Shown here one piece after another: positions 2,917-45,257 of a stretch of 64,000 nt of DNA; positions within the stretch are counted from its first letter, which is position 1, and every line of letters starts with the position of its first letter. Source of the DNA: an uncultured Candidatus Saccharibacteria bacterium. Lineage in GTDB: Bacteria; Patescibacteriota; UBA1384; DTJR01. The DNA lies in NCBI GenBank assembly GCA_964580065.1, contig CAZOJE010000003.1, forward strand, positions 18,441-82,440. Reading direction: 5' to 3'. The position numbers and the translations under genes are program-made. The notes beneath the pieces are model-generated. The model saw only the letters and a program-made list of their open reading frames with translations. It had not been told where the DNA came from and made no database searches.

Positions 2917-4445
2917 CAAATTTAGTGGAAGAACTAAAAAAAGAAATTACCGAATTTCAAGATAAGGCCGAAAAGAAAAAAGTTGGGGAAATTGCGGAAG
3001 TCGCCGATGGTATTGCCAGAATCTACGGCTTACAAGACGCTAAATTCGGCGAGCTTTTGAAAATTTCATCCTCCGAGGGCGAAGTTTCGGCAATGGCCTT
3101 GAGTTTGGAAGAAGGTTTCATCGGAGCCATTATTTTGGGCGATTTTGCCAAAGTTAAAGCTGGTGATGAAGTTTTGGAAACCGGCGAGGTTCTCACAGTG
3201 CCGGCCGGCCAAGAAATGATCGGTCGCGTTATTAACGCTCTGGGCGAACAAATTGACGGCAAAGGTAAAATCAAAGCCGAAAAAATGATGGAAGTTGAAA
3301 AAGTCGCCCCGGGAGTTGTCACCAGAGAAAAAGTTAACACGCCTTTACAGACTGGTATTCGTGCCATTGACGCCCTTATCCCGATTGGCCGCGGCCAGCG
3401 AGAATTGATTATCGGCGACAGAGGCACGGGCAAAACGGCCATCGTTTTGGACACCATTATCAATCAAAAAAATGTCCCTGAAGAATCCCGACCAATTTGC
3501 ATTTATGTTTCAATCGGACAAAAGCGGTCAAAAATTGCCCGCCTCGTGGCCACTTTAGAGGAAAACGGCGCCATGGATTACACGATTATTGTCAGCGCAA
3601 CTTCGTCTGATCCCGCCGCCGCCAACTACCTAGCCCCATATACCGGCTGTGCTATCGCCGAATTTTTTATGGAGCAAGGCCGCGATGTTTTAATCGCCTA
3701 TGACGATTTATCTAAACAAGCTTGGGCCTATCGTGAGATTTCTCTACTTTTGCGCCGCCCGCCAGGACGCGAGGCCTACCCGGGAGATATTTTTTATCTT
3801 CACTCAAGATTGCTGGAACGCTCGGCTAAATTAAATGAGGATTACGGTGGCGGTTCAATAACGGCTTTGCCAATAATCGAAACGCAGTCGGGTGACGTTT
3901 CCGCCTACATTCCAACCAACGTTATTTCGATTACCGACGGTCAAATTTTCTTAGAGCCGGATCTGTTTTATAAAGGTATTCGGCCGGCAATCAATATTGG
4001 TATTTCCGTTTCGCGTGTTGGTGGATCGGCTCAAATCAAAGCGATGAAAAAAGTGGCCGGAAAATTAAAGCTTGATTTGGCACAGTTTCGCGAAATGGAG
4101 GCCTTTACCCAATTTGGCGGCGATTTGGACGAAAAAACCAAAACTCAAATCGAAAGAGGCAAACGCTTGACCGAGCTCACCAAACAACAGCAATTTGAGC
4201 CGATGTTGGTAGAAGATCAAGTTATTGTGTTGTTTGCCGCCACCAACGGCCTACTCGACAACGTGGCTGTTGATAAAACACTTGAGGTTTCGGCCAAGGC
4301 TCTGCAAGCCGTTAAAACTCGGGCGAAACAAATAATTGAAAAAATCAAAAAAACTGGTGACTTTGACGACGATGACGCCAAAAAAATGACCGAAATCATC
4401 AAAGAAACCGTTAAACCGTTCGAATCGGAAAACAAAGACAAATAG
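2913..4445 (+). CDS. atpA: F0F1 ATP synthase subunit alpha
   Basis: 510 aa with Walker A GDRGTGKT and overall alpha-subunit similarity. Confidence 0.95.
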
Positions 4446-4446
4446 T

Positions 4447-6700
<2,254 letters not shown>

Positions 6701-6701
6701 A

Positions 6702-7127
6702 ATGGCGAAAAAATTTCATTTGCTTTTAGACAGCCCTGAAGAGATGCTTTTCGACCAAGAAGTCGAACAAATTAGCTTACCCACCGCGCAAGGTGAGATC
6801 GGGATTATGGCCGATCACACTCCTTTGATTGCCCTTGTTTCTTCGGGTGTCATCACAGTAAACGACGGCCAGAAAGAGTATTTTCTTTCTAGCGGCGGCG
6901 GCTTCATTGAATTCAAAAATAATACCGCTAATATTTTTGTGCAAAGCGCGGAATTTGCCGACTCGATTGACGCCGAGCGCGCTCTCGCCGCCGCCGAAAA
7001 AGCCAAAAAAGAAATGGCGGAAAATGTTGACGAAATTAGTTTGGCCGACGCCACCGCCGTCCTAGAAAGAAATATCGCCCGACTAAAAACAATCGAAAAA
7101 AGAAAACGCCGTTCGGGGACGCGCTAA
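6702..7127 (+). CDS. atpC: F0F1 ATP synthase subunit epsilon
   Basis: 141 aa in the operon position, with a beta-sandwich N-terminus and a helical C-terminus. Confidence 0.8.
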   Translation: MAKKFHLLLDSPEEMLFDQEVEQISLPTAQGEIGIMADHTPLIALVSSGVITVNDGQKEYFLSSGGGFIEFKNNTANIFVQSAEFADSIDAERALAAAEKAKKEMAENVDEISLADATAVLERNIARLKTIEKRKRRSGTR

Positions 7128-7170
7128 TTTTTTTATCTAATCAGTCTTAAGCGTTCTAAATTATCAGCAA

Positions 7171-7647
7171 TTATTTTGCTGGTGGTATTGCCAGATCCGA
7201 AATCGTTGAAGCAATTTTTTTAGGACGAGCCACATTGGTAAAATCGACTTCACGATTCGAGCCGGAGGCCTTTATGATAACCGTGCCAAAACCAAAGATT
7301 GCACCCCATAGGGTTTGGTCAACGTCAACGGCTTGAATATCGTCCAGAGAAATTTCCTCTTCGCGGGAGCCGAAAATTCCCACCCTATTTTCAACACGCC
7401 TGTTAGTAAGGTGATAAATTGTGTAGTACCAGTTGAAAAAGATCACTACTCCAACAAAAACAATCACCAAAACAATAATTAAATAGACCCACCACGTTCT
7501 TAATCCGGCGGTGTATAAAATATAATCGAAAGCAACAAGGAGAACTATGAGGGGCAAAAGCTGGCCGGCAAGAATCAAAAAACTTGGCCTAATCTCAAGA
7601 ATTGTTTCCTCTCCCGGTATATATTTTTTCATTTTTTGATCTGCCAT
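7171..7647 (-). CDS. Membrane protein with bacterial PH domain (bPH_2/YdbS-like)
   Basis: 158 aa with two N-terminal TM helices, then Y.LTNRRV...GIFG......I....I.....QT pattern typical of bPH_2 domains. Confidence 0.5.
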   Translation of the reverse strand: MADQKMKKYIPGEETILEIRPSFLILAGQLLPLIVLLVAFDYILYTAGLRTWWVYLIIVLVIVFVGVVIFFNWYYTIYHLTNRRVENRVGIFGSREEEISLDDIQAVDVDQTLWGAIFGFGTVIIKASGSNREVDFTNVARPKKIASTISDLAIPPAK

Positions 7648-7785
7648 TTTGTCTCTCCTCTAAAACTAAATATTATATTAACTATAAACAGGACCTTCTT
7701 CAGAAGTTTATTTTACCAAAAAGTCCTACAAAAGCACACAAATATTGGTTAATTGAGTTTTTTTGGGTTGGTTTTGGGGTTGATA

Positions 7786-8439
7786 CTATTTAGTGAATCT
7801 AAATGTATTTGCGATTTGATTGAATGTCTCAACTATTAAAGCCCCAGGAGAAGCCGGAGTCAATTGGATTGTGTATTCAATCCCATCATTAACAGCAATA
7901 TAAACTAAATCGTTAATATACCCGCCTACATCGGAAGTTTCATTAGTTCTATCAATCAAGTAAAAGTCAACACCATTTATTGTTTTTTTAGTTTTATTGG
8001 CGTAGCTACTTACAATCTGATTGAGAATTTGATCAGTTGGGTTTGTACTAATAAAAATTACTGCCTCACCTGATTTTTTCGAATAACCAGGATCATAGGT
8101 AAATTGATAGTTAGCAAGACGAAAAGCAACCCTTTGAGAATCAACGGCATTTTCATCATTATTAAATGGCATCCAACCAGAAGAAGGATATTTGATTGAA
8201 TACGAGTATTTATCGTTAGCGTAGGTTTTCCAATTAACTGTCGCATCGGCTGTGGCTGAAGTATTTATGGAGACAGTTGAAGTTGCCGTAGCTGACTCTA
8301 GGGCAGTGGTTTCGCTGGTAGCTGAATTTTTTCCTGCCATAAAACCAATCGCCAAAAATATTACTGCTGTTACCACGATAAAAATTGTTGTCATGACAAT
8401 TTTATGGCCGTCAATCTGCTTGGTTTTTCCTTCTTCCAT
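7786..8439 (-). CDS. Membrane-anchored secreted protein, paralog family member 1 (divergent N-terminus)
   Basis: 217 aa: N-terminal TM anchor, S/T/A-rich linker, C-terminal domain with WKTY.NDKYSYSIKYP motif shared with the 8544 and 9949 genes, ending F.FTK. Confidence 0.55.
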   Translation of the reverse strand: MEEGKTKQIDGHKIVMTTIFIVVTAVIFLAIGFMAGKNSATSETTALESATATSTVSINTSATADATVNWKTYANDKYSYSIKYPSSGWMPFNNDENAVDSQRVAFRLANYQFTYDPGYSKKSGEAVIFISTNPTDQILNQIVSSYANKTKKTINGVDFYLIDRTNETSDVGGYINDLVYIAVNDGIEYTIQLTPASPGALIVETFNQIANTFRFTK

Positions 8440-8543
8440 TATTTGTCTCCTTTTATAATATATTTTTTACCTGGTTAACTCAACGAAAGATATTACCCTT
8501 GTTCACAAAACTTTGCCAGACTAACTCTTTGGCGGCAAATTCT

Positions 8544-9176
8544 TTATTGGGTGAATTTAAATGTAGTTAGGATTTTATCGAATTCCGTCAATGGTTGAGT
8601 GTCAGAATCTTCCATGTAGAAGAAATACAGATACTCATTTGAGCCCACTGTCAAATTTCCCACTGCCAAAGTCCTACTATCTTTAGAGTTCTCGTCAGAT
8701 GAAATTGTTTTTGTGGATTTGATCTTTCCTCCAGTATAGTCCATAGCGTATTGAACGTCAGGGAAAAACGGACCAAAGCCGTCAGGGTTTACATAAAGAT
8801 CCATAGTTGAAGTATTGCTTTTTATGGATAACTTCCTCTCTGGGACCGAGGTAGTATTCTTTTCGAGTTCGTCAGTTGCTGTATAGGTGTTCGGATACTT
8901 AAAACTAAACCCATACTTGTCGTTAGTATATGTCTTCCAGCTTGCTGTTTCATCGGCTGCCGTAGCGCTTGTTGATGTGGTAGCCGACGCTGTTGTTTGC
9001 AAACTGGTCACTTTACTCTGAAGATCGGTGATTTGGGCATTGAGATCATTTTTCTCTTTTGTGGCCTTGTTATTAACGTAGACGTAAGCACCACCACCAA
9101 AAACAACTGCTGTAAGTAAGATTAGCAAAGTAATAGTTACACCAGACATGCCTTTTTTAGCTATTTGCTCGTCCAT
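8544..9176 (-). CDS. Membrane-anchored secreted protein, paralog family member 2
   Basis: 210 aa. N-terminal ~65 aa (TM helix + NDLNAQITDLQSKVTSLQ coiled coil) is nearly identical to the 9230 and 9949 genes. C-terminal domain is variable. Confidence 0.6.
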   Translation of the reverse strand: MDEQIAKKGMSGVTITLLILLTAVVFGGGAYVYVNNKATKEKNDLNAQITDLQSKVTSLQTTASATTSTSATAADETASWKTYTNDKYGFSFKYPNTYTATDELEKNTTSVPERKLSIKSNTSTMDLYVNPDGFGPFFPDVQYAMDYTGGKIKSTKTISSDENSKDSRTLAVGNLTVGSNEYLYFFYMEDSDTQPLTEFDKILTTFKFTQ

Positions 9177-9229
9177 GAAATCTCCTTCAATTTTTATTTG
9201 ATAAATGTTTTTTTATTTTTTCCAACTCT

Positions 9230-9925
9230 TTAAAGGAATTTAAAGCTTGACAATACGTGTTGAAAAACACTGTAATTTATATCACTAGACATTCCTAAGT
9301 AAGAAATTTCATACGTCGCAGTGCCATTAGTTACAAGCACCCCAACCCCAGGGTCTGTGCCTGCCCAGACTGCTTCTAGAGCTGACTGTCCAGCAACAGT
9401 AATATTTTTTTCGGATAAATGCGGTTGCGGTGTAAACTTTTTTAATTGGTCATACCATTGCGAGGCTGTCTCGTCCGAGGGTTTGTTTGCTAATACTTGA
9501 ACCATAATCATATTCGTTGTGTCAGTCTTTGGCGGTGAGAAATCAACAAAAACGCCTGCGTCAGTCGGATCGTTACATAATATGCAGCTCGAAATTTCCC
9601 AGTCGTGGGGATATTCACTGCTCCAGCCGCTTTTACTCGTAAATAAAGACCATTGCGAGCTGTCGCTTGATAGAGATTTCGCCGAGTTAGCGGACGCCGA
9701 ACTCGTTGCACTAGCAGATGGACTAATTGACGATCTTGTCGTTTGCAAACTGGTCACTTGGCTTTGCAGCTCGGTGATTTGGGCATTTAGGTCGTTCTTT
9801 TCTTTCGTGGCTTTGTTATTTACATAAGCATAAGCACCACCACCAAAAACAACTGCTGTGAGTAAGATTAGTAAAGTAACAGTTACACCAGACATGCCAT
9901 TCTTGGTTTGCATTTGCTCATCCAT
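9230..9925 (-). CDS. Membrane-anchored secreted protein, paralog family member 3
   Basis: 231 aa with the same conserved N-terminal module and a different C-terminal domain containing CxxC (SSCILCNDP). Confidence 0.6.
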   Translation of the reverse strand: MDEQMQTKNGMSGVTVTLLILLTAVVFGGGAYAYVNNKATKEKNDLNAQITELQSQVTSLQTTRSSISPSASATSSASANSAKSLSSDSSQWSLFTSKSGWSSEYPHDWEISSCILCNDPTDAGVFVDFSPPKTDTTNMIMVQVLANKPSDETASQWYDQLKKFTPQPHLSEKNITVAGQSALEAVWAGTDPGVGVLVTNGTATYEISYLGMSSDINYSVFQHVLSSFKFL

Positions 9926-9948
9926 AGTGCTTTCCTTTCTAATTTATT

Positions 9949-10590
9949 TTACTTGGTTAATTGGAAGGTGGAGAGGATTTGGGTTAAGACAGCATCAACA
10001 TCCGCCTCATTGATATCAATATTATAATACGCCCTTACACTAACGATGTGATTACTATCTTTGTATTCGGCTTCTGTATATCGATCTTTTTCGTAACTCC
10101 CAATACCTTTTAAATTGGTAATTTTCCAACTAAGTCCATTATATGAGGGGGTTTTTTCTGAAATTATATTATAGCCCTCTGGTCCGCCAGCGTTATCTGT
10201 TATCTCAAAAACTTCTATTGAAACATTTTTATATTTTTCAGACGCAGAAGTTAGTTTCACACCGTCTAGACTGGGTGTATTTATGCTATTTTCCAACCAT
10301 CCGTTGGGGTATTTGAAACTAAAATTATATTTAGAATTGATATACTTTGTCAATTCAGCCGTCGCGCTTGTCGTGGCACTTGTTGATGTGGTAGCCGACG
10401 CTGTCGTTTGCAGACTGGCCACTTGGCTTTGTAGATCGGTGATTTGCGCATTCAGGCCGTTCTTTTCTTTCGTGGCTTTGTTATTTACATAAGCATAAGC
10501 ACCACCACCAAAAACAACTGCCGCTAGTAAGATCAGCAAAGTGATCATTGCACCAGACATGCCTTTTTTGGTTTGCATTTGCTCATCCAT
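9949..10590 (-). CDS. Membrane-anchored secreted protein, paralog family member 4
   Basis: 213 aa with the conserved N-terminal module and a C-terminal KYNFSFKYPNGW motif domain. Confidence 0.6.
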   Translation of the reverse strand: MDEQMQTKKGMSGAMITLLILLAAVVFGGGAYAYVNNKATKEKNGLNAQITDLQSQVASLQTTASATTSTSATTSATAELTKYINSKYNFSFKYPNGWLENSINTPSLDGVKLTSASEKYKNVSIEVFEITDNAGGPEGYNIISEKTPSYNGLSWKITNLKGIGSYEKDRYTEAEYKDSNHIVSVRAYYNIDINEADVDAVLTQILSTFQLTK

Positions 10591-10699: not shown

Positions 10700-10910
10700 A
10701 CCTGACTCGAACCTTCCCGTTTAGGCGCAGATAAAGAGAAAGTGCGCAAATAGGTTAGGGTTGGTGCCGGGGCTTTGGCGGGGTGGAACCGCCAAATTCC
10801 TGACTCGAACCTAATATTGAGTTTGTGTAAAAATAATAAGTACGCGATAAATTTTGAATTTGGTGCCGGGGCTTTGGCGGGGTGGAACCGCCAAATTCCT
10901 GACTCGAACC
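10700..10910. repeat. Direct repeats resembling a tRNA 3' end (two full ~50-bp X units at 10762-10811 and 10861-10910, plus a partial unit at ~10700, each followed by a ~45-bp related Y unit)
   Basis: Reverse complement of X ends ...GGTTCGAGTC...CCCCGGCACCA, the same T-arm and acceptor/CCA end as the adjacent tRNA-Leu, but with a ~25-nt insertion. Seen directly in the sequence. Confidence 0.5.
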
Positions 10911-10957
10911 TCCGCGTTAGGTGCAGATAAAGGGAAAGTGTGCAAACGTTTTAGTGA

Positions 10958-11044
10958 TGGTGCCGGGGAGAGGACTCGAACCTCCACACTTTTGCAAGCG
11001 CCAGCTCCTAAAGCTGGTGCGTCTACCAATTTCGCCACCCCGGC
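10958..11044 (-). tRNA. tRNA-Leu (anticodon TAG), class II with long variable arm, CCA encoded
   Basis: Reverse complement reads GCCGGGGTGGCGAAATTGGTAGACGCACCAGCTTTAGGAGCTGG...GGAGGTTCGAGTCCTCTCCCCGGCACCA. 7-bp acceptor stem, anticodon loop TTTAGGA. Confidence 0.8.
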
Positions 11045-30356: not shown

Positions 30357-31496
30357 GTGGAAAATCTCGACAAAAAAATTATTGCCGTTCAAAAAAGCAC
30401 TCGCACCACTTTTTCGTGTTTTAATCCGTTGCACAATAAACTTCGGGCCAAATTCCCATGGTATTATTCGTGGCATGTCAAATCATTTGCTAATTTTGCC
30501 CATAAGTTAGTTTTGCTCGCCTACACCTTAAACATTGTCGCCTTCGTCCTTTTTTCCAGTGTGCTTGTTTACAACAAAACGGCCACTAATATTGCTATGA
30601 AGGCCGCTTCGGAGCAGACGGGTCTCAACACAAAAACAATATGGGAGGCAGGAACTTTAGACAATATCGACACGACGTCTTCGGTAAACCAAATGAAAAT
30701 AGCAGATTTAAGCAGTAGCCCTATTGATTTATCTAATAAAACAATCGCTGTGACTTACGATGAGGCAAACAAAGCTAGTGCTAATGACAAAAACGAAAAC
30801 ACTTATTGGTCTGTTACCGATCTTATCTGGCCGAATAACCAATCATGGACTATCGATATAGGAGAAAATTACACTGTTGCGAAAATGAAATCATTAACTT
30901 CTACCAGTACAACAGCATGGACCAACCTCATATATTCATATAGCACGGATGGGACAAGTTTCACCCCTACGGCCGACAACTATACTGTAACCACCGGCAC
31001 CCCCGCGTGGGATGAAAGTGCAGATATAAATGCTACGGCTCGTTATCTCCGAATAACTTTTTCAGGCAACGATCCCGATAATTCGTCTGACGGTTATCTC
31101 TACGAATTTCAGGCATACGGGCCGGGTTATGCCACCCACACCACCGCCGCTAATCAATTAGACGGAGGAAGCAATTTTCTGACATGGGAAACTTTTACTC
31201 CTACTCAAACGGTCTCGGACAATGCAACGATACAATATAGATTTAGAACTTCTACCGATGGAAGCACTTGGACCGCTTGGACGGCTTATCAATCAGGAAC
31301 ATCATTTGATTTATCTAAATTAGTCACAAACAGTGTTGGAACAGGAGAAGATATTACTTATTATAAATATCTTCAGATTGAAGCTAAACTAACTTCTTTA
31401 GATGGGGTATCAACGCCGATCATTACTGACTATACGGTTAATCATCATACCAATCGGGCGCCTACGGCGCCCGCGGAGCCGAGTGCCGCTCTCTAA
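30357..31496 (+). CDS. Membrane-anchored surface protein with F5/8 type C (discoidin)-like domains, paralog A
   Basis: GTG start. TM helix. NENTYWSVTD...QSWTIDIGENYTV...YSYSTDGTSFT matches the discoidin pattern. The C-terminal 120 aa is identical to paralog B. Confidence 0.6.
   Translation: MENLDKKIIAVQKSTRTTFSCFNPLHNKLRAKFPWYYSWHVKSFANFAHKLVLLAYTLNIVAFVLFSSVLVYNKTATNIAMKAASEQTGLNTKTIWEAGTLDNIDTTSSVNQMKIADLSSSPIDLSNKTIAVTYDEANKASANDKNENTYWSVTDLIWPNNQSWTIDIGENYTVAKMKSLTSTSTTAWTNLIYSYSTDGTSFTPTADNYTVTTGTPAWDESADINATARYLRITFSGNDPDNSSDGYLYEFQAYGPGYATHTTAANQLDGGSNFLTWETFTPTQTVSDNATIQYRFRTSTDGSTWTAWTAYQSGTSFDLSKLVTNSVGTGEDITYYKYLQIEAKLTSLDGVSTPIITDYTVNHHTNRAPTAPAEPSAAL
31131..31487 (+). repeat. 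~357-bp segment >98% identical to 32401-32757 (shared 3' coding module of the two discoidin-protein genes)
   Basis: Direct comparison finds only about three mismatches over ~357 bp. Confidence 0.8.
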
Positions 31497-31557
31497 AGTG
31501 CTCTCCAATACCTTTTAGCGAGGCGACATAATCACTAAAATTTGTTAAAATGGACGA

Positions 31558-32799
31558 GTGAAAAATCTCGACCAAAAAATTATTGCCGTTCAAAAAAGCA
31601 CTCGCACCACCTTCTCTCGCTTATCGGCACTACACAATAAACTTCGCGCCAAATTCCCATGGTATTATTCGTGGCATGTAAAACCCTTTGCTAACATTAC
31701 ACATCAATTAACTCTTCTTATATATGTTTTGAATATTGTCGTTTTTGTGCTCTTTTCCAGCGTGCTCACCTACCGTCCCGCTACAAATATCGCTATGAAA
31801 GCCGCTTCAGAGCAGACAACACTCAACACTAAAGCAGTGTGGGAGGCAGGAACTTCAGATAATATCGATACGACATCTTCGGTAAATCAAATGAAAATGG
31901 CTAATTTTAGTAATGGCCCCGTTGATTTATCAAGCGCTGTCACTAGTGTGATTGGCGACACGCCTGTTACTTACGATGACACTAATATTGACCATTACGA
32001 CACCGCCGCTATTAGCCAAAATGACTATGCCGCTATGTTTGACAACGACCAATCGACTTATTACACAATGTCGGGCATAACGGGTTTGCCCTGGCCATGG
32101 CATATTCACGTAACACTTGATTTTGGCGACGATATAAATATCATTTCCCAATCGCATTGTTTGGGCTTCAGCGGCGAAGGATACGGCAATACTTCCTCAA
32201 TAGAAATATCTGGTGATGGCAGTAATTGGACGACGGTTTTGGAGGCGGCTGATTATGTTACGGACTCTTGTAATGTCGCTTATCCGCTAACCAATGGGCC
32301 GGCGGGAAATAATCGTTACGCTCGGCTGACAATATCTTCGCCGATGGAAGGTCAGCAAGTTAATATTAAAGAATTGGGGCTAAACGCTCTTCCGGCTACC
32401 GCCACCCACACCACCGCCGCTGATCAATTAGACGGGGGAAGCAATTTTCTGACATGGGAAACTTTTACTCCTACTCAAACGGTCTCGGACAATGCAACGA
32501 TACAATATAGATTTAGAACTTCTACCGATGGAAGCACTTGGACCGCTTGGACGGCTTATCAATCAGGAACATCATTTGATTTATCTAAATTAGTCACAAA
32601 CAGTGTTGGAACAGGAGAAGATATTACTTATTATAAATATCTTCAGATTGAAGCTAAACTAACTTCTTTAGATGGAGTATCAACGCCGATCATTACTGAC
32701 TATACGGTTAATCATCATACTAATCGGGCGCCTACGGCGCCCGCGGAGCCGAGTACTACAGTAGATTCGGGGAAAATGATTTCTCTTCCACCGTCTTAA
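31558..32799 (+). CDS. Membrane-anchored surface protein with F5/8 type C (discoidin)-like domains, paralog B
   Basis: GTG start. MFDNDQSTYYTMSGI..LPWPWHIHVTLDFGDDINI...ISGDGSNWTTV is a strong discoidin signature. It shares the C-terminal module with paralog A. Confidence 0.6.
   Translation: MKNLDQKIIAVQKSTRTTFSRLSALHNKLRAKFPWYYSWHVKPFANITHQLTLLIYVLNIVVFVLFSSVLTYRPATNIAMKAASEQTTLNTKAVWEAGTSDNIDTTSSVNQMKMANFSNGPVDLSSAVTSVIGDTPVTYDDTNIDHYDTAAISQNDYAAMFDNDQSTYYTMSGITGLPWPWHIHVTLDFGDDINIISQSHCLGFSGEGYGNTSSIEISGDGSNWTTVLEAADYVTDSCNVAYPLTNGPAGNNRYARLTISSPMEGQQVNIKELGLNALPATATHTTAADQLDGGSNFLTWETFTPTQTVSDNATIQYRFRTSTDGSTWTAWTAYQSGTSFDLSKLVTNSVGTGEDITYYKYLQIEAKLTSLDGVSTPIITDYTVNHHTNRAPTAPAEPSTTVDSGKMISLPPS
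32401..32757 (+). repeat. Second copy of the ~357-bp near-identical coding repeat
   Basis: See 31131-31487. Confidence 0.8.
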
Positions 32800-37034: not shown

Positions 37035-37131
37035 CTCAACCAGTTGGGTTGATAACAATGAGGATTTTTGTTATTATTTTCCCAGCAAAAATGTTTGCTT
37101 TGTTTTTTTGTAATTTTGATGTTTGAAACTT

Positions 37132-37176
37132 GGGCCAGTAGCTCAGTGGTAGAGCAGGAGCCTTTTAAGCTTCGTG
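37132..37176 (+). pseudogene. 5' fragment of tRNA-Lys (45 nt: acceptor through anticodon arm to variable loop), duplicate of the intact gene
   Basis: Identical to nt 1-45 of the downstream tRNA-Lys. It lacks the T-arm and 3' acceptor strand. Confidence 0.6.
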
Positions 37177-37309: not shown

Positions 37310-37384
37310 GGGCCAGTAGCTCAGTGGTAGAGCAGGAGCCTTTTAAGCTTCGTGTCGAGGGTTCGATCCCCTCCTGGCCCTCCA
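37310..37384 (+). tRNA. tRNA-Lys (anticodon TTT), CCA encoded
   Basis: GGGCCAG/CTGGCCC acceptor, D-arm TAGCTCAGTGGTAGAGCA, anticodon loop CTTTTAA, T-arm GAGGGTTCGATCCCCTC, CCA. Confidence 0.85.
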
Positions 37385-37512
37385 AGCAAGTACCCCACGC
37401 AAGTGGGGTTTTTGCTTGGAGTGATTTTGGCGCGGGGATCGAAGGCCGCAGGGCTGACTGAGTCCGAGGCCCGCCCCGAAGAAATTTCAGCAGAAATTTA
37501 CTGAGGGGGAGC

Positions 37513-37529
37513 CCCTCCTGGCCCTCCAA
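37513..37529 (+). repeat. Duplicate of the tRNA-Lys 3' end (CCCCTCCTGGCCCTCCA), ~130 bp downstream of the intact gene
   Basis: Exact 17-nt match to the T-stem 3' strand + acceptor + CCA of tRNA-Lys. Confidence 0.55.
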
Positions 37530-37643
37530 ACCTATTTTGCGCAAGCAAAGAGGTTTGTCCTCCGTAGTCCGCCAACTGGCGGACGAAGGATGGACTACCC
37601 GTAACCCATAACTTTACGCGACGGGTTGCGAAATAATAAGTGT

Positions 37644-37882
37644 ATGTATTACGTTTATCTTCTGGAACTGGTCGACAGATCAATCTACGCTGGGTCAACT
37701 AGCGACATAAAGAAAAGATTTACCAAACATAACAAAGGCGATGTTCTGGCAACCAAAGGCAAAAGACCAATCAAATTGGTCTTTTATTGTGTTTTTCCAA
37801 CTAAAGAGGGTTATCAAGTTTGAAAAATATCTCAAATTTGGTTCTGGTCAATCCTTTAGGGACAGGCACTTGGTGAAGTAAG
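37644..37882 (+). pseudogene. GIY-YIG nuclease family small protein (YhbQ/UPF0213-like), apparently frameshifted near 37815-37825
   Basis: MYYVYLLE...SIYAGSTSDIKKRFTKHNKG....KGKRPIKLVFY is a GIY-YIG core. The expected C-terminus (..KFEKYLKFGSGQSFRDRHLVK) continues in the +2 frame after a premature TGA. Confidence 0.45.
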
Positions 37883-37966
37883 CCCAAGTGATACAGCCCG
37901 AACTGATAACCGGCTAAAAGCTGGTTTTTGCTTTATAAATTCGCTAATATTTTGAGCAGGAGGAAA

Positions 37967-39316
37967 ATGGTTAATCACCACGAACTAACTGAAACAAGCT
38001 TTATTCCTGAAGAAACGACCAACGCGCAAGAGCTAAATTTATCAACCGAAGAATCCCCCAAAGAAGAATCGCTTAAGAATGTAGAAGAGGAAAAGGGCAG
38101 AAGGTTTGAAGTCATCGTTTTGCCCAAAATTGCCGAGGATGCAGAAGGAAATGATTATCTAGAACACGCCAAGATTGATCAAGAAAATTTGGCAGACTTG
38201 GAAACACTCATTGATTATCTTAAAAGAATACCGCCAAAATTAGTGTCTGAATACTATAGAGGGCAAATAAAATTCATCATTGATCTATACGATGAATATG
38301 AAAGACGATTGGCCGGCATCCAAAATGCCAGACAAACAGGAGAGTTGGTTGATGAAAAAATAGCAAAACAAACAAAACTATCCGAGCAAGAGGTAGCGCC
38401 CGCAGACGAAATTTACGAAAAACTGTTGCATCATTTTGAAACTTCACCAACAGAGATGATTACCTTGGCTGAAAGTCATATGTCAAGTTATGATTCAATC
38501 AGTGCGGCCCAAGAAGCCGCCGAGTTCAGAGAACCACAGACGGCCGTTATCGTGTTTGATAACCATCAAGACACCCTTGGTAGAGACCGTCCATGGAAAG
38601 GGAATATTTTCCGACTTTTAAGAGAAAAAGGACAGATAGCCGGCGCCATTTTTTTCGGAAATTTTCAGGACACCGTTACCCTCTATTATTCTAAAAGCGA
38701 GGAAAGCTATATTGTGCCAGAGGTTTCCAGCCCAAATACTAAAGGAAAAGAAAGGGTTAAAATTATTGTCCGCCAAGCGTTAGAAGAATTTGCCAAACGC
38801 GGCATTACTAATATGGTTATTTCGATAGACATTGACGTTTTAAGAGCTAGGGAAATCGGCTATACTGCCACGGAATACAACCCCCGAACAATTTTGGGAT
38901 ATTTATCTTCGATAGATTTGTCAGAGGTTGGGCTTAACAAAAAACCCGAAGGATTAACCACAGAAGAAGTGACACAATTAATCAAATATGTCTTCAATTT
39001 CAGCAATAGGAAAAGATTGCTTAACCCCCTTATAGCTTTAGATCACAATCAGAATTCCATGGATCCCATTGGCGCCAGATTATCCGAAATCGGAACGGCA
39101 TTAGAAACAATTTATTCAGAATGTAGCCGCATGGGGATAGAAATCGGGATCAAGCTTAAAGGTGGCGGCCGATATATTGGCGATATTGTCGAACTAAGCG
39201 GTTATGATTATAAAGGACACACCACCCGAGCCGTATCAGCGCTAGCAAAAAAAATAGAAAATCTCTCCGCTGTTAAAAACCCCAAAGAATCTTCAGAGGG
39301 ACCCGAAAGCCAGTAA
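37967..39316 (+). CDS. Hypothetical protein, possible arginase/deacetylase-fold (ureohydrolase-like) domain
   Basis: ATG at 37967 after GGAGG. VFDNHQD (DxHxD) and ISIDIDVL (SxDxD) motifs resemble the metal sites of the arginase superfamily. Inference only. Confidence 0.45.
   Translation: MVNHHELTETSFIPEETTNAQELNLSTEESPKEESLKNVEEEKGRRFEVIVLPKIAEDAEGNDYLEHAKIDQENLADLETLIDYLKRIPPKLVSEYYRGQIKFIIDLYDEYERRLAGIQNARQTGELVDEKIAKQTKLSEQEVAPADEIYEKLLHHFETSPTEMITLAESHMSSYDSISAAQEAAEFREPQTAVIVFDNHQDTLGRDRPWKGNIFRLLREKGQIAGAIFFGNFQDTVTLYYSKSEESYIVPEVSSPNTKGKERVKIIVRQALEEFAKRGITNMVISIDIDVLRAREIGYTATEYNPRTILGYLSSIDLSEVGLNKKPEGLTTEEVTQLIKYVFNFSNRKRLLNPLIALDHNQNSMDPIGARLSEIGTALETIYSECSRMGIEIGIKLKGGGRYIGDIVELSGYDYKGHTTRAVSALAKKIENLSAVKNPKESSEGPESQ
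39178..39260 (+). repeat. Direct repeat copy 1 (~80 bp; 3' coding end of the 37967 gene)
   Basis: CTAAGCGGTTATGATTATAAAGGACACACCACCCGAGCCGTATCAGCGCTAGCAAAAAAAATAGAAA is exactly repeated at 40681-40747. Similarity with mismatches extends ~14 bp further upstream. Confidence 0.8.
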
Positions 39317-39354
39317 ACCGATTTGCGATCTAAACAAATCCTTAAGCAAAATTA

Positions 39355-40188
39355 ATGGCCGAAACAATATTTTCAGCAATGAACACGATCGTCCAAATTA
39401 GAATCGAAGGCAAAGACGATAGCGTGGCTGTAGAAAAAGCTAAAGCGACTATTCTAGATTGCGAGAAACGCTTTAATTGTTTTTCCCGACAAAGTGAGGT
39501 TTCAAAGCTTTGCCGCCACATCGAAACCAACACGGAATACTCAATTGGCCGTGACTTATATGAGATCCTTCTTATCGCGCAAAAAATCAGTAAAAAAACC
39601 AACGGCCTATTTGATGTTGATTTTGAAAATCACGAAAAACACAAACAATATCATTTAGCCAACCCAAATTTAATAAGCTTTGAATCCAAAAAAACCAAAA
39701 TTAATCTAGGTGCAATCGCCAAAGGGTACGCGGCCGATAAAACAATGGAAAACATCAAAAAATTCAATGTTGGTCGAGCCATGATTAGCATGGGCGGACA
39801 AGTGACTTGTTTTAGCCGAACTCAAGCGTGGCAAGTCGGCTTACAAAATCCTAATAAAAAGTTTGGCCAAATTATCGGGTTAATCGCAATGTCAAACGGG
39901 TCACTCTCCACCTCGGCGGAAAATTATCGGGGGAAACATATAAAAAATCCCCAATCAACAAATTGGGAAAAAAACATTGATTCTATTTCAGTTTTTTCGG
40001 ATTCAGGAAGCTTGGCCGATGCTTATTCCACCGCCTTATTTTTAGCCGACCCAAAAACGAGAAAAAAACTGGCGCAAAAAAACAACCTAAATGTTATAAT
40101 TATTAATGGTGAGATTATAAAAATATCGGCCAATTTGCTAAACAAGTTCGTTTTGGTCGATAAAAAGTGCAAAGTAGAAAAATATTAA
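39355..40188 (+). CDS. apbE: FAD:protein FMN transferase (ApbE/Ftp family)
   Basis: 277 aa. INLGAIAKGYAAD and MISMGGQV motifs are typical of ApbE. Confidence 0.75.
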   Translation: MAETIFSAMNTIVQIRIEGKDDSVAVEKAKATILDCEKRFNCFSRQSEVSKLCRHIETNTEYSIGRDLYEILLIAQKISKKTNGLFDVDFENHEKHKQYHLANPNLISFESKKTKINLGAIAKGYAADKTMENIKKFNVGRAMISMGGQVTCFSRTQAWQVGLQNPNKKFGQIIGLIAMSNGSLSTSAENYRGKHIKNPQSTNWEKNIDSISVFSDSGSLADAYSTALFLADPKTRKKLAQKNNLNVIIINGEIIKISANLLNKFVLVDKKCKVEKY

Positions 40189-40202
40189 CTTCGGGAGGGA
40201 GG

Positions 40203-40598
40203 ATGAAAATGGCCCTAAAAATTATCGGAGCGATTTTCCTTGTTATAATTATTGCGATTGGAATTGCGGTTGTGAGAACCCTAAATTATCACAAAAAACT
40301 TAAAGCCGAGCCCGTCAAAGATATTGATTTTTCTAAAGTTAAAGATGGAGAATATGAAGGCAAGTTTGACGCTAGTTTATGGACAAACAATGTTCAGGTC
40401 GTTGTCGCGAACCACAAAATTACCAAAATCACGCTGCTTAAAGCCAACAACACCCCTATGGCCGATAAAGAAAATGAGATTATATCTAAAATTATTAGCC
40501 AGCAAAATTTAAAGGTTGACGTCGTTGCCGGAGCCACTATCACGACAAAAACAATCTTAAAATCAACCGAAATCGCCCTAGAAAAGGGATTGAATTAG
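40203..40598 (+). CDS. Membrane-anchored FMN-binding domain protein (NqrC/RnfG-like FMN_bind), probable ApbE substrate
   Basis: Start MKMALK after GGGAGGGAGG. N-terminal TM helix. DVVAGATITTK matches the Dxx(s/t)GAT flavinylation motif. Confidence 0.6.
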   Translation: MKMALKIIGAIFLVIIIAIGIAVVRTLNYHKKLKAEPVKDIDFSKVKDGEYEGKFDASLWTNNVQVVVANHKITKITLLKANNTPMADKENEIISKIISQQNLKVDVVAGATITTKTILKSTEIALEKGLN

Positions 40599-40666
40599 AG
40601 CCGTAAACAGAAAAACCCAGAGAAACGCAACATGTTTTTTCGGCTTTTATTTTCAGTGCATATGCT

Positions 40667-40747
40667 GCGACATTATCAAACTAAGCGGTTATGATTATAA
40701 AGGACACACCACCCGAGCCGTATCAGCGCTAGCAAAAAAAATAGAAA
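40667..40747 (+). repeat. Direct repeat copy 2 (non-coding copy of the 3' end of the 37967 gene)
   Basis: See 39178-39260. No in-frame start codon upstream. Confidence 0.8.
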
Positions 40748-40852
40748 TTTTATCAGCTAGCTAAAATTTGCAGATAAAATTTCGCCACAAAAAACTCGCG
40801 TTGACATTTTATGTCAAAAACATAATTTGAATGTTATAATTATTAACAAAAT

Positions 40853-41167
40853 ATGAGCGATAAAGCACAACCCCAAAATACATCGAAGGGACGAGAGGAA
40901 ATCGGCTTCAAAATACTTCTTGTTATTATTGAAGCCATATCTATATTCAGAATACTTATTTGTGTTGTTGTTATGGGAAGCAACTATGGCGCTGAGTCTG
41001 CGCTTCCCTATATGCTGACAGGGTTAATTATCTTCGTCATTCTTCAAATTATTCTTTTTAAAAATAAGAGGGTCAGACAAAGCACTGGCCTCTCACTGTT
41101 AATTTTGATAGGTATATTGTTGACGGCCATTGTTACGTCTAATTCTTCTTTCAGATTTTTTGACTAA
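40853..41167 (+). CDS. Small hypothetical membrane protein (2-3 TM)
   Basis: 104 aa hydrophobic ORF in an intergenic gap. No family recognised. Confidence 0.35.
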   Translation: MSDKAQPQNTSKGREEIGFKILLVIIEAISIFRILICVVVMGSNYGAESALPYMLTGLIIFVILQIILFKNKRVRQSTGLSLLILIGILLTAIVTSNSSFRFFD

Positions 41168-41242
41168 ATTTAAATATATATTGACAAAACTAGATTGTGG
41201 CATCTGGTATAATTGACGTGTACAAGTTTTAATAGGAGAAAA

Positions 41243-41719
41243 ATGACCGCACAAAATGACAATTGTATTTTTTGCAAAATTGCCAAAGGTGAAATGCCCG
41301 CTCATAAAGTTTGGGAAGACGAAAATTATTTGGCTTTTTTAAGCATTTTTCCTAATACCGAAGGATTCACCGTGGTGATTCCCAAAAAACATTATTCGAG
41401 TTACGCTTTCGCTCAAAGCGATGAAATATTATCAAATTTAATTTTAGCGGCAAAAAAAGTAGCTCGAAAAATTGATAATGCATTTGAAGACGTCGGCCGC
41501 ACCGGCCTAATTTTAGAAGGGTTCGGGGTTGACCATCTGCACGCAAAACTTTTTCCGATGCATTCGACCAGCGCTGAAAGTTGGCAGCCAGTTGAATCCG
41601 ACATTGATATTTACTTTGAAAAATACCTCGGCTACATCAGCTCGCATGATTCAAGCAGGGCTGACGATGAGGCCCTCGCCGTTACTGCCAAAAAAATTCG
41701 TCAAGCAAAAGGTAACTAA
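41243..41719 (+). CDS. HIT family hydrolase
   Basis: Start MTAQNDNCIFCKI... Contains the C.FCKI.GE nucleotide-binding motif and a histidine-triad region (VDHLHAKLFP). Confidence 0.7.
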   Translation: MTAQNDNCIFCKIAKGEMPAHKVWEDENYLAFLSIFPNTEGFTVVIPKKHYSSYAFAQSDEILSNLILAAKKVARKIDNAFEDVGRTGLILEGFGVDHLHAKLFPMHSTSAESWQPVESDIDIYFEKYLGYISSHDSSRADDEALAVTAKKIRQAKGN

Positions 41720-41721
41720 AT

Positions 41722-42645
41722 ATGGCCGAAATAACCGAAATTAAACCAAGAAAATCCCGTTGGGGAGTATTAGCGTTTTTAGTGGTTTTGCTCGCCGGCG
41801 GATATTTTGGCGTTTTATATTATTTATATTTGCCCAAATGTGCCCTACCAACCGAATACAGCGTCGGTGCGATTGACTCGCGTTTCAAAATATCAGCGGC
41901 CGAGTTCTCGGCCGCCGCCGGCGACGCCGGGAAGCTTTGGGACGACCAAACAGCCAAAAATATTTTACAATTAGGCGCAAATGCTCCCATTAAAATAAAT
42001 CTCATTTACGACGATCGCCAAGCTCAAATTGACAAGATAAACGAGGAGGCGGGCCAAATCGTATCCGATCAAGAAGATCTTGTATCTCTGAACCAAAAAT
42101 TTGACGAGCTATACGCTCAATATCAACAAAACCTTAAATCTTTTAATGAAAAGGTGAGTTACTGGAATACACAAGGCGGCGCACCCGAACCGACTTACAG
42201 CGAGCTGAAAACACAACAAGAGCAGTTAGAAAAAACTCGGCTTACTTTGGTCGCCATGAATAATGTTTTGAATACAAAAATCGATCAGCACAATCTTTCG
42301 GTCGACAGCTTTAACCAAACAGTCGAAAAAAACCGCAATAAAATTATCACGCAAGGGGAATATAATCCCACTGATCGGTCAATTAATATTTATACATTTG
42401 GCGACGTAAAAGAGCTTAAATTTGTTATTGCTCACGAAATCGGCCACGCCCTTGGACTTAATCATGTCGATAATTCAAAATCGCTCATGTATTATCTTAT
42501 TCAAGATCAAGATGTCGATAACCCTGTTTTAACCACCGAAGACAAGCAAGCCCTCGGCAAAAAATGCAATCTCGACGCTGACTTTTTCCATCCGAATTGG
42601 CAAAACTTGAAGTCTCTCTTTCCCAACAAAGCCACAATCGAGTAA
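41722..42645 (+). CDS. Membrane-anchored zinc metalloprotease, matrixin (M10)-like
   Basis: N-terminal TM plus coiled coil. VIAHEIGHALGLNHV matches HExxHxxGxxH with the downstream Met-turn region (SLMYY). Confidence 0.55.
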   Translation: MAEITEIKPRKSRWGVLAFLVVLLAGGYFGVLYYLYLPKCALPTEYSVGAIDSRFKISAAEFSAAAGDAGKLWDDQTAKNILQLGANAPIKINLIYDDRQAQIDKINEEAGQIVSDQEDLVSLNQKFDELYAQYQQNLKSFNEKVSYWNTQGGAPEPTYSELKTQQEQLEKTRLTLVAMNNVLNTKIDQHNLSVDSFNQTVEKNRNKIITQGEYNPTDRSINIYTFGDVKELKFVIAHEIGHALGLNHVDNSKSLMYYLIQDQDVDNPVLTTEDKQALGKKCNLDADFFHPNWQNLKSLFPNKATIE

Positions 42646-42654
42646 GATAAAACA

Positions 42655-43518
42655 ATGGACAAAATAATATTAGCGATTGATATCGGCGGGGCTACCATCA
42701 AAACGGCTCTCGTTAAAGGAACCGAAGTGTTGCAGTACAAAAATTTTGCGACATCATCTAGTTTGAACGAATTATTGGAGATTATAAAATTAACCAGCGG
42801 CCAATATCGGAAAATTCATAATTTTGACGGTATCGGAATTGGCCTCCCGGGATTAATCGACTTTGCTAACCAAAAAGCGCTCTTCTGCCCCAACCTCCCC
42901 TATTTGAACGGTTTTTCGCCCGACCTTTTGGGTGAAAATGTTAAAATTGCCAACGACGCTGACTTGGCTTTGTGTGGCGAAGTCATCATTAACCAACTAA
43001 AAAAAACCACCGCTATGTTCACTCTCGGCACAGGTATTGGCGGCGCGCTCTTTTTTTCGGGAGCTTGGCCTTTCGAGTTACCTTTTGCCGGTGAATTTGG
43101 GCACCTCAAAATTGCCCCCAGCGGACCAATTTGCGGTTGTGGACAAAGAGGATGTTTAGAGGCCTTTATCGGAAGCAAATCCTTGCTCGGCGAGGCCAAA
43201 GCGAGAATCTCTCCGCAAATCGATTCGGTCAAAGAAATTTTTTCGCTTGCTAGGGACGGCAATCCTAAGGCCGCCCAAATAGTCAGAGAATTTTCCGAAT
43301 ATCTTGGCCTCGGCATTGCCAATGTCGTTAATATTACCGGCGCCGAAGTTATTATTTTGGGCGGCCAAATCGCTAAATCAGCCGACGTTTTTCTATCTCA
43401 CTTGCCCGCCACTGTCGGCGGAAAAATATCTTTTGCCAAACTTAGATCAATCGAAATAAGATCGGCTTTTGATCCAGAAAAAAACGCCCTCATCGGCGCA
43501 ACGGCCTTATTTGATTAG
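42655..43518 (+). CDS. ROK family glucokinase
   Basis: ILAIDIGGATIKTAL N-terminus and CGCGQRGCLEAF zinc motif of ROK kinases. Confidence 0.7.
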   Translation: MDKIILAIDIGGATIKTALVKGTEVLQYKNFATSSSLNELLEIIKLTSGQYRKIHNFDGIGIGLPGLIDFANQKALFCPNLPYLNGFSPDLLGENVKIANDADLALCGEVIINQLKKTTAMFTLGTGIGGALFFSGAWPFELPFAGEFGHLKIAPSGPICGCGQRGCLEAFIGSKSLLGEAKARISPQIDSVKEIFSLARDGNPKAAQIVREFSEYLGLGIANVVNITGAEVIILGGQIAKSADVFLSHLPATVGGKISFAKLRSIEIRSAFDPEKNALIGATALFD

Positions 43519-43521
43519 TAA

Positions 43522-44802
<1,281 letters not shown>

Positions 44803-44924
44803 TTAGTCCTCCTAACTACAAATGAATTTAACATTTACCGCTGACAAAATAAATACTACCGGTAAATTTTGCTTTTTTGAACTAAACATACTAAGATCGA
44901 AGTAATAATAATTGAGGAGGTCTA

Positions 44925-45257
44925 ATGGAAGAAAAGAAAAAAAGTTTTATAAAAGGAACAGCGACTGGCGTGGCAATCGGCGCCTTGGCTGGAGCAGTAG
45001 CCGGGATTCTCTTAGCTCCTAAAAGCGGCAAGCAAACACGCAAAGATATTGCCAAATATCTCGACAAGATGAAAGATGAAGTCGCCGAAGGATTAGAAAA
45101 AGCAGGCGATTTTACCAAAGAAAAATATGCCGAAGTTGTTGAGGCAGTCGTAGCAACATACGAAAAGGCCAAAAAAATTACTTCAAAAGAAGCGGCTGAA
45201 ATTAAAGAAGATCTTAATGCCGGCTACGATAAGGTAAAAAAATCAGTCAAAAAGTAA
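44925..45257 (+). CDS. YtxH-like (DUF948) small stress protein
   Basis: GTATGVAIGALAGAVAGILLAPKSGKQTRKDI N-terminal motif followed by a charged helix. Confidence 0.5.
   Translation: MEEKKKSFIKGTATGVAIGALAGAVAGILLAPKSGKQTRKDIAKYLDKMKDEVAEGLEKAGDFTKEKYAEVVEAVVATYEKAKKITSKEAAEIKEDLNAGYDKVKKSVKK

Follow-up and report, generated by a model that had tools for sequence, protein, structure and literature searches.

A repeat-bounded ApbE and FMN_bind gene cassette at the 3' end of an arginase-fold gene in a Candidatus Saccharibacteria genome, and its empty site in metagenome assemblies

The DNA analysed here, referred to as the window, is a 64,000-nt stretch of the genome of an uncultured Candidatus Saccharibacteria bacterium (GenBank assembly GCA_964580065.1, contig CAZOJE010000003.1, positions 18,441 to 82,440). 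It contains a small cassette encoding a flavin transferase (ApbE) and a membrane-anchored FMN_bind protein, located between two copies of a direct repeat of the 3' end of the preceding gene. The corresponding site without the cassette was found in four independent metagenome assemblies, two from JGI and two from ENA. The locus is a genuine case of gene gain or loss with exact boundaries, and its general type is well known. An earlier inspection of the letters alone (the original prediction) had proposed such a repeat-bounded module, and most of its structural claims were confirmed, as described below.

The repeat pair (39180-39271 and 40667-40758) is 92 nt long with 85 of 92 positions identical, and the distance from start to start is 1,487 nt. 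The predicted duplication of the upstream gene's 3' end was thus present on re-inspection and alignment of the copies. The exact core, previously given as 67 nt, exists and measures 69 nt (39192-39260 = 40679-40747). When up to three mismatches were allowed, the core occurred exactly twice in the window, and no match was obtained in 100 dinucleotide shuffles. The mismatches between the copies are confined to the edges, three within the first 12 nt and four within the last 11 nt. The three left-flank mismatches are all transitions; one is synonymous, and the others cause V>I and E>K changes. Copy 1 is located in frame within the last 46 codons of the 449-aa gene at 37967-39316, which ends in ...GDIVELSGYDYKGHTTRAVSALAKKIENLSAVKNPKESSEGPESQ and the stop codon. 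In the same frame copy 2 reads ...DIIKLSGYDYKGHTTRAVSALAKKIEILSAS and stop, that is, the alternative ending ...KKIEILSAS. It has no gene body upstream and is a non-coding 3' fragment of the target gene.

A homologue search with the target protein retrieved a 100% identical protein of 436 aa (P0001) that ends in ...KKIEILSAS. It is encoded on contigs L001 (JGI 3300010344), L002 (ENA ERZ27257404, prefix k141_) and L003 (ENA ERZ795049), and searching DNA with the core retrieved a fourth empty-site contig, L011 (JGI Ga0116161). Immediately downstream of the gene, all four contigs have the same 104-aa, HIT, M10-peptidase, ROK and enolase genes that the window has. By blastn, positions 2220-3991 of L001 corresponded to window 37508-39278 and positions 3892-8334 to window 40667-45110; the overlap is one repeat copy. 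The single copy at the empty site consists of the left flank of copy 1, the core and the right flank of copy 2. An attB site, or the target of a single crossover, has this geometry, and the allele is the one that had been predicted, down to its last residues.

Alignment with three of the empty-site contigs (L001-L003) revealed that both repeat copies in the window are hybrids. Copy 1 (39180-39271, + strand) is attL-like and joins the chromosomal left flank GCGATATTGTCG and the core to an incoming right flank, AATCTCTCCGC; its left flank and core are identical to the three contigs and its right flank differs from them. Copy 2 (40667-40758, + strand) is attR-like, with an incoming left flank GCGACATTATCA, the core and the native right flank. 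It is followed by the displaced native gene end, ILSAS and stop codon (40762-40764), and a hairpin, together at 40747-40783 on the + strand. The hairpin (40744-40757/40770-40783) has a dG of -12.1 kcal/mol (z = -3.0) and is not followed by a U-run on the + strand. The displaced end and hairpin are identical in sequence in L001-L003, where the hairpin stands 3' of the gene. The claim that the module was inserted at the 3' end of a resident gene was borne out in this comparison: each empty site is exactly the product, or the starting point, that recombination through the core would have.

The four empty-site contigs share 23 single-nucleotide polymorphisms (SNPs) in the right flank relative to the window and therefore represent a different strain. 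When the cassette was removed in silico, the occupied and empty haplotypes were identical from 37592 to 40869, and 28 differing sites were counted in the next 4.2 kb. The SNP-free stretch, which covers a GIY-YIG gene and the arginase-like target gene, extends 1,669 nt to the left of the core and 122 nt to the right (P ~2e-5). Outside this stretch, the divergence is 0.64% further right and three SNPs are found at 37564-37591. The stretch reflects either a recent gain or loss of the cassette, or a homologous exchange that took place later, with the heterologies on the two sides as its limits. Both explanations imply ongoing recombination between carriers and non-carriers. The 104-aa membrane protein downstream (40853-41167; variants P0048-P0052) occurs with all four combinations of residues at positions 17 (I/V) and 36 (I/T), which fits recombination among strains or within the population.

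The target gene (37967-39316, + strand) encodes a 449-aa protein that, judged by its sequence, is a divergent member of the arginase/ureohydrolase family PF00491 (24.7 bits, cut-off 22). The six family metal-ligand positions (H171, D198, H200, D202, D288 and D290), which correspond to the ligands of a binuclear metal centre, are invariant in an alignment of seven sequences. A low-confidence structural model (predicted local distance difference test score, pLDDT, 60.6) gave formimidoylglutamase, guanidinase, agmatinase and arginase as top fold matches. The family is rare, with 154 clusters at E<=1e-3 among 1.84 billion representatives in a profile search and eight word-sharing homologues among 5.8 billion clusters. 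No relative was found when GTDB genomes were scanned with the protein. Looking up the exact 449-aa sequence gave no match, although the collection does contain it on an NCBI contig of 130,053 nt. In the occupied allele, the last 18 codons and the stop codon (39260-39316, + strand) are supplied by the inserted DNA. The protein alignment showed that this replacement C-terminal tail, NLSAVKNPKESSEGPESQ, is homologous to the long tail of a 48%-identical homologue (P0002), and at the DNA level it aligns with the sequence L005 as GGGACCCGAAAGCCAGTAA against CGCACCCGAAATGAATTAA. This tail homology, together with the transitions in the left arm, indicates that, next to apbE, the incoming DNA contained the genuine 3' end of an arginase-family gene in a slightly diverged form. 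A conserved functional operon of the arginase-like gene and apbE was rejected, since no ApbE is encoded beside the target-gene relatives P0002 (48% identity) and P0004 (32%). In four stand-alone open reading frames (ORFs) of 67-105 aa from other metagenomes (P0165, P0176, P0178 and P0192), similarity to the arginase-fold family is limited to its C-terminal ~60 residues. These ORFs may be gene ends displaced by comparable insertions, or genes that are merely truncated.

The cargo is 1,418 nt in size and holds only two intact genes, with gaps of 38, 14-20 and 68 nt and without a recognisable promoter. The apbE gene (39355-40188, + strand) encodes a 277-aa FAD:protein FMN (flavin mononucleotide) transferase. 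Its match to PF02424 (E=4.8e-39) begins at residue 9 and covers profile positions 1-265 of 266, and a profile built from its alignment matched solved FMN transferases with E=3e-57 (PDB 7esa), so that the predicted flavin transferase between the repeat copies was verified. The AKG, HI..P and ADxxST positions (K123, G124, H195, I196, P199, D222, S225 and T226) are invariant with typical ApbEs. The enzyme belongs to a short clade without signal peptide or lipobox. A signal or lipoprotein leader of ~30 residues, present in P0016, P0019, P0020 and P0030, is absent in this ApbE and in its six closest homologues (P0010-P0015). The same seven proteins also lack an insertion of ~23 aa and 8 aa of the TSGDYERYF segment, where the cassette's ApbE reads TSA-ENYRG. 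With an in-frame TAA 9 nt ahead of the ATG, an upstream extension of the ORF is impossible. Members of the clade are 273-277 aa long, and only seven were found at an identity of at least 41% among 5.8 billion clusters. Cytosolic ApbEs have been described (PMC12052999).

Between the target gene and apbE, neither a promoter-like site on the + strand nor a terminator-like structure was found, which points to co-transcription of the cassette with the target gene. The right end of the cassette (40599-40666, + strand) is non-coding and contains a weak stem followed by UUUUAUUUU; its fold is no better than that of shuffled sequences (z = -0.22). A compositional island was considered and rejected, as the GC content of the cassette (38.2%) lies at the 12th percentile of the window (42.2 +/- 3.6%). 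A second direct repeat was observed at 40075-40106 and 40815-40846, with 27 of 32 positions identical and 17 of them in an exact run (AATGTTATAATTATTAA). One copy covers the ApbE codons for QKNNLNVIIIN, and the other lies in the -10-like region upstream of the 104-aa gene, which is present in the empty allele too. The chance of such a 32-nt repeat within 5.5 kb is ~0.7%.

The second cassette gene (40209-40598, + strand) encodes a membrane-anchored protein of 129 aa, or 131 aa from a start at 40203; a GGAGG is found 6 nt before the ATG at 40209. It matches PF04205 with 33.6 bits (cut-off 22) and has a single N-terminal hydrophobic helix. The motif D106-V-V-A-G-A-T112 (131-aa numbering) was identified, in agreement with the prediction of an FMN_bind protein with a flavinylation-type motif, and Thr112 is the predicted FMN acceptor. 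The motif of ApbE substrates has been defined as D-x-x-[S/T]-G-A-[S/T] (PMC12052999). In DVVAGAT, Ala occupies position 4 instead of Ser or Thr, and the AG(A/S)T part is kept in the homologues. In five FMN_bind homologues, each adjoining a short-clade ApbE, the helix is followed by an invariant YHKKxKA, and the sequence VD(A/V)(I/V)AG(A/S)TITT is shared as well.

The original prediction placed the flavinylated protein outside the cytoplasm and described a minimal extracellular electron-transfer unit. Neither description was supported. The ApbE has no export signal, its ORF is not extendable and its closest homologues are leaderless; with ApbE read as cytosolic, Thr112 must be accessible from the cytoplasm. 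One Lys precedes the hydrophobic helix of the FMN_bind protein and R/K/K/K follow it. The basic YHKKxKA stretch is compatible with a domain that faces the cytoplasm and the charge count points the same way, which weakly suggests this orientation. NqrC-type anchors are similarly ambiguous in charge. Pfam scans of the cassette and of the window detected no Ndh2, EetAB, Rnf, Nqr or other membrane electron carrier, so that no electron-transfer partner is encoded nearby. Likewise, none of the parts of a Listeria-type locus (Ndh2, EetA/EetB, DmkA/B, exported flavinylated lipoprotein) was present in either. Flavinylation systems are reported to be strikingly under-represented in the candidate phyla radiation (CPR) (PMC8238504), and within the literature library searched, no paper was found to mention both ApbE and Patescibacteria.

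The cassette was also found, at 99.9-100% identity, in Logan unitigs from three sequencing runs (SRR30200690, SRR28640815 and SRR9674392). The length of an A-run at 40616 is the sole difference from one of these unitigs (L004). Each of them stops 30 nt inside the core, because a k=31 graph must break at the repeat. The three independent unitigs all run from the FMN_bind gene into the same left arm and core, and none has a donor-type right-hand context. Short-clade ApbEs (41-58% identity) were always paired with an FMN_bind gene, in six unrelated contexts. No arginase-like fragments were detected near the pair in these six contexts, and no flanking repeats in the three that were tested for them (L012-L014). 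Since the pair occurs in six other contexts and the target-gene relatives have no ApbE, the pair is best seen as a portable two-gene unit that entered an empty-type site. A scan of JGI metagenomes with a 41-nt core pattern matched a single contig, which was empty, and thus gave no alternative cargo at the site. Viral contigs gave no match for the core DNA, the ApbE or the arginase-like profile, and at the DNA level the cassette was not matched in plasmid or phage collections. In L012, the pair is preceded by a small helix-turn-helix gene flanked by two copies (4238-4270 and 4563-4595) of a 33-nt palindrome-containing sequence, a possible operator.

The origin of the locus is explained, with slightly better than even confidence, by a Campbell-type insertion, in which DNA carrying a look-alike of the gene's 3' end entered by a single crossover that is reversible through the core. 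The incoming DNA would have carried ~90-150 nt of such a look-alike, composed of a 15-nt imperfect left arm, the 69-nt core and the long tail with its stop codon. A crossover within the core would leave the target gene intact with the incoming tail, and the original end and its hairpin 1,487 nt downstream. Host homologous recombination may have catalysed the exchange on the 69-nt identity. Pfam scans showed no integrase, transposase or recombinase in the cassette or among the ORFs of at least 150 aa across the 64 kb, and no terminal inverted repeats are found at the cassette ends. ComEC, RecG, RuvA and RuvC are encoded in the window. In the reverse step, a deletion through the core would restore the short-tail gene and release a 1,487-nt circle. 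The occupied or empty state could then spread between strains through DNA uptake and flanking homology. The two cassette genes would be transcribed by read-through from the target gene's promoter, and ApbE would attach FMN to Thr112 of its partner on the cytoplasmic side. In experiments, 109-950 bp of the locus were duplicated when a circular molecule with a gene-end fragment integrated by a single crossover (PMC3240628).

Several observations weigh against this single-crossover insertion. The recA gene is not within the 64 kb, and this reading does not account for where a circular donor devoid of replication and recombination genes would ultimately have come from. No circular junction or excision product was seen, the Logan unitigs ending inside the core. 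The SNP-free stretch from 37592 to 40869 fits a later homologous exchange equally well as a recent event. The integrated state, i.e. left flank, core and incoming tail in one molecule, is found only in the window's own NCBI contig. Finally, the identity steps from 100% in the core to ~65-75% in the arms and then to nothing, which is sharper than for diverged homologues and more like an att core with imperfect arms. This last feature leads to a rival explanation that is regarded as possible, with odds clearly below even, namely a site-specific integrative element without its own recombinase, similar to the cis-mobilizable elements (CIMEs). The 92-nt repeats would be attL and attR, and an integrase acting in trans would insert and excise the element at the conserved 3' end of the arginase-fold gene; its gene would be located in another part of the genome or on a visiting element. 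It accounts for an identical core with imperfect arms on both sides and for an empty site that fits attB, yet an identity of 69 nt is far above the requirement of a recombinase. The target ORF remains intact because the element brings a substitute 3' end, and CIMEs retain attL and attR after the loss of their integration genes (PMC5704250). No integrase was found in the cassette or among the ORFs of at least 150 aa in the 64 kb, however, and the short gaps of 38, 14-20 and 68 nt do not give the look of a decayed integrative and conjugative or integrative and mobilizable element. Both tRNA genes of the window are accompanied by partial tRNA copies, and synteny with the empty-site contigs is lost exactly at a tRNA-Lys 3' fragment, which suggests that integrases act in this lineage. 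Against their action at the present site stand the lack of any other cargo there, the sole JGI contig that matches the core being empty, and the lack of viral, plasmid or phage matches.

Homology-facilitated illegitimate recombination during natural transformation was considered improbable. In this process, which has been described for naturally competent bacteria (PMC3240628), linear DNA of a close relative with the native order arginase-like gene (long tail), apbE and FMN_bind gene would have been anchored by homology. Its far end would have been joined at a 12-of-15 microhomology upstream of the anchor, duplicating the recipient 3' end. The presence of ComEC and the nature of the long tail as a genuine family tail agree with it, as does the NLSA/ILSA similarity at the right edge, which is true homology of the two tails. 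The similarity to the left of the core ends after ~15 nt, also in favour of this process, but all three left-arm mismatches are synonymous or conservative transitions, more like diverged homology than a random microhomology. Such a donor is also difficult to reconcile with the three cassette unitigs, which all enter the same left arm and core with no donor-type right-hand context, and no relative was found in which the arginase-like gene adjoins ApbE. An assembly artefact is very improbable. Either a separate 1.49-kb molecule or strain variant would have been threaded into the contig via the 69-nt core or, conversely, the empty contigs would be occupied genomes with a skipped loop. Repeats of 69 nt are of a length that misleads short-k assemblers, the integrated left junction occurs in the window's contig only and unitigs that stop inside the core cannot show linkage. 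Ordinary reads of 100-150 nt span such a core, however, and a 1.49-kb circle without a replication gene would not persist alone. The 23 SNPs shared by the empty contigs indicate another strain and not a collapsed copy. If the k141_ prefix of L002 means k = 141, this length exceeds the core plus flanks, and the empty junction is supported by reads and is not a skipped loop.

Insertions of DNA at a gene's 3' end, with the duplicated end on either side, form a well-known class to which the locus belongs. CIMEs are elements that lack integration and transfer genes and have kept attL and attR (PMC5704250). As in such 3'-end integrative elements, the target 3' end is duplicated as direct repeats, a substitute gene end is provided, the ORF survives, sibling strains have a single-copy unoccupied site and no integrase is found inside. 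The present locus differs in its 1.4-kb cargo without integration, transfer or regulatory remnants, its 69-nt core, a rare protein-coding target gene and a CPR host, and neither a cognate integrase nor a partner element was identified in the 64 kb. With the Campbell integration of suicide vectors (PMC3240628) it shares two hybrid homologous copies that flank foreign DNA and reversibility by recombination between them, whereas here the event is natural and the homologous segment is short and identical only in the 69-nt core. Insertion sequences, transposons and integron cassettes may also appear as small segments between direct repeats, yet no transposase, terminal inverted repeats, attC or integron integrase was found here and the repeat is 69-92 nt long. 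A transposon target-site duplication was rejected because a repeat of this length is too long and its edges carry mismatches. An integron cassette was likewise rejected for lack of an attC and an integron integrase; the 3' end of the cassette has no significant structure (z = -0.22), and the cassette has no Rfam match.

In other ApbE/FmnB and FMN_bind pairs (NqrC, RnfG and Listeria PplA; PMC8238504, PMC12052999), the genes are also adjoining and the small FMN_bind protein has a D-x-x-x-G-A-T motif. In contrast, the ApbE described here is leaderless with two internal deletions, motif position 4 is Ala and not Ser/Thr, and no Nqr, Rnf, Ndh2, EetAB or other membrane redox partner is located nearby. 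The cytosolic ApbE of Klebsiella, which serves a soluble fumarate reductase, is likewise leaderless, whereas the substrate here is membrane-anchored. What sets the locus apart is mainly its small size, the absence of any recombinase, the CPR host and the cargo.

The window is core chromosome, with genes for ATP synthase, DnaK/GrpE, RecG, RuvA, RuvC, ComEC, LepA, MurJ, DnaB, DnaX, DnaE, L19 and GltX. Among GTDB species representatives, the best matches of LepA were all from CPR/Patescibacteria, which upholds the earlier description of the host as one with a reduced genome. The top match (60% identity) was to a Candidatus Berkelbacteria metagenome-assembled genome (MAG), and Berkelbacteria and Saccharibacteria MAGs lead the matches. 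In the window, Rfam detected only two tRNAs and a sub-threshold tRNA-Lys fragment; the cassette had no match. For the small proteins encoded nearby, searches of PHROGs and NCBIfam were uninformative.

Other repeats were observed in the window. The 5' part of the tRNA-Lys(UUU) gene (37310-37384) recurs as an exact 47-nt copy 178 nt upstream (37130-37176; Rfam tRNA 23.7 bits, sub-threshold), and its 3' end as a 21-nt copy (37509-37529) 144 nt downstream, the latter distance measured from start to start (37365 to 37509). The GC-rich spacers between these pieces are distantly related to each other, with shared GGGGATCGAA..GCCG and ..TTCAGCAGAA.. motifs. In the empty-site contigs, all similarity to the window is lost exactly at the tRNA-Lys 3' fragment (window 37508), and no tRNA is found upstream. 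This break is a second structural polymorphism, located 1.7 kb from the cassette site. Beyond it (positions 1-2219 of L001), these contigs carry a 564-aa ORF bracketed by a perfect 93-nt inverted repeat (L001 1-93 and 1890-1982). The ORF had no Pfam or PHROG match and NCBIfam was uninformative. L001, L002 and L011 begin at the same point, L001 starting inside the inverted repeat. At 10700-11044 (- strand), the tRNA-Leu is followed by two exact 50-nt units (10861-10910 and 10762-10811), with a third, partial unit near 10700. Each unit consists of GGTTCGAGTC, a 29-nt hairpin-containing insert and CCCCGGCACCA, resembling the T-arm and acceptor end of the tRNA; the spacers alternate and partly repeat. 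At 7786-10590, a tandem array of four PsbP_2-like genes with 213-nt repeats is found. Two further tandem paralogues, with F5/8-type-C domains (30357-32799), share a 300-nt stretch that is 98% identical (31122-31421 and 32392-32691), which suggests recent gene conversion.

A wider hypothesis can be put forward, and it is a speculative one with a low probability. CPR bacteria, in which classical mobile elements are rare, might exchange small recombinase-free cassettes, each carrying a mimic of ~70-150 nt of a host gene's conserved 3' end, which would enter and leave via host recombination after DNA uptake. The tRNA-fragment arrays at both window tRNAs and the C-terminal ORFs P0165, P0176, P0178 and P0192 would then be footprints of the same process.

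The genomes of CPR/Patescibacteria are ~1 Mb in size with few recognisable mobile elements, and little is known about the gain and loss of accessory genes in these bacteria. The locus described here provides a base-pair-resolved example. Both alleles can be found in public data with defined junctions, which makes allele frequencies, circular forms and excision directly accessible to read mapping or PCR. The module pairs an unusual leaderless ApbE with a membrane-anchored FMN_bind protein. Its presence in one strain and absence in another indicates that protein flavinylation, reported to be strikingly under-represented in CPR, can be a strain-variable accessory trait in these organisms.

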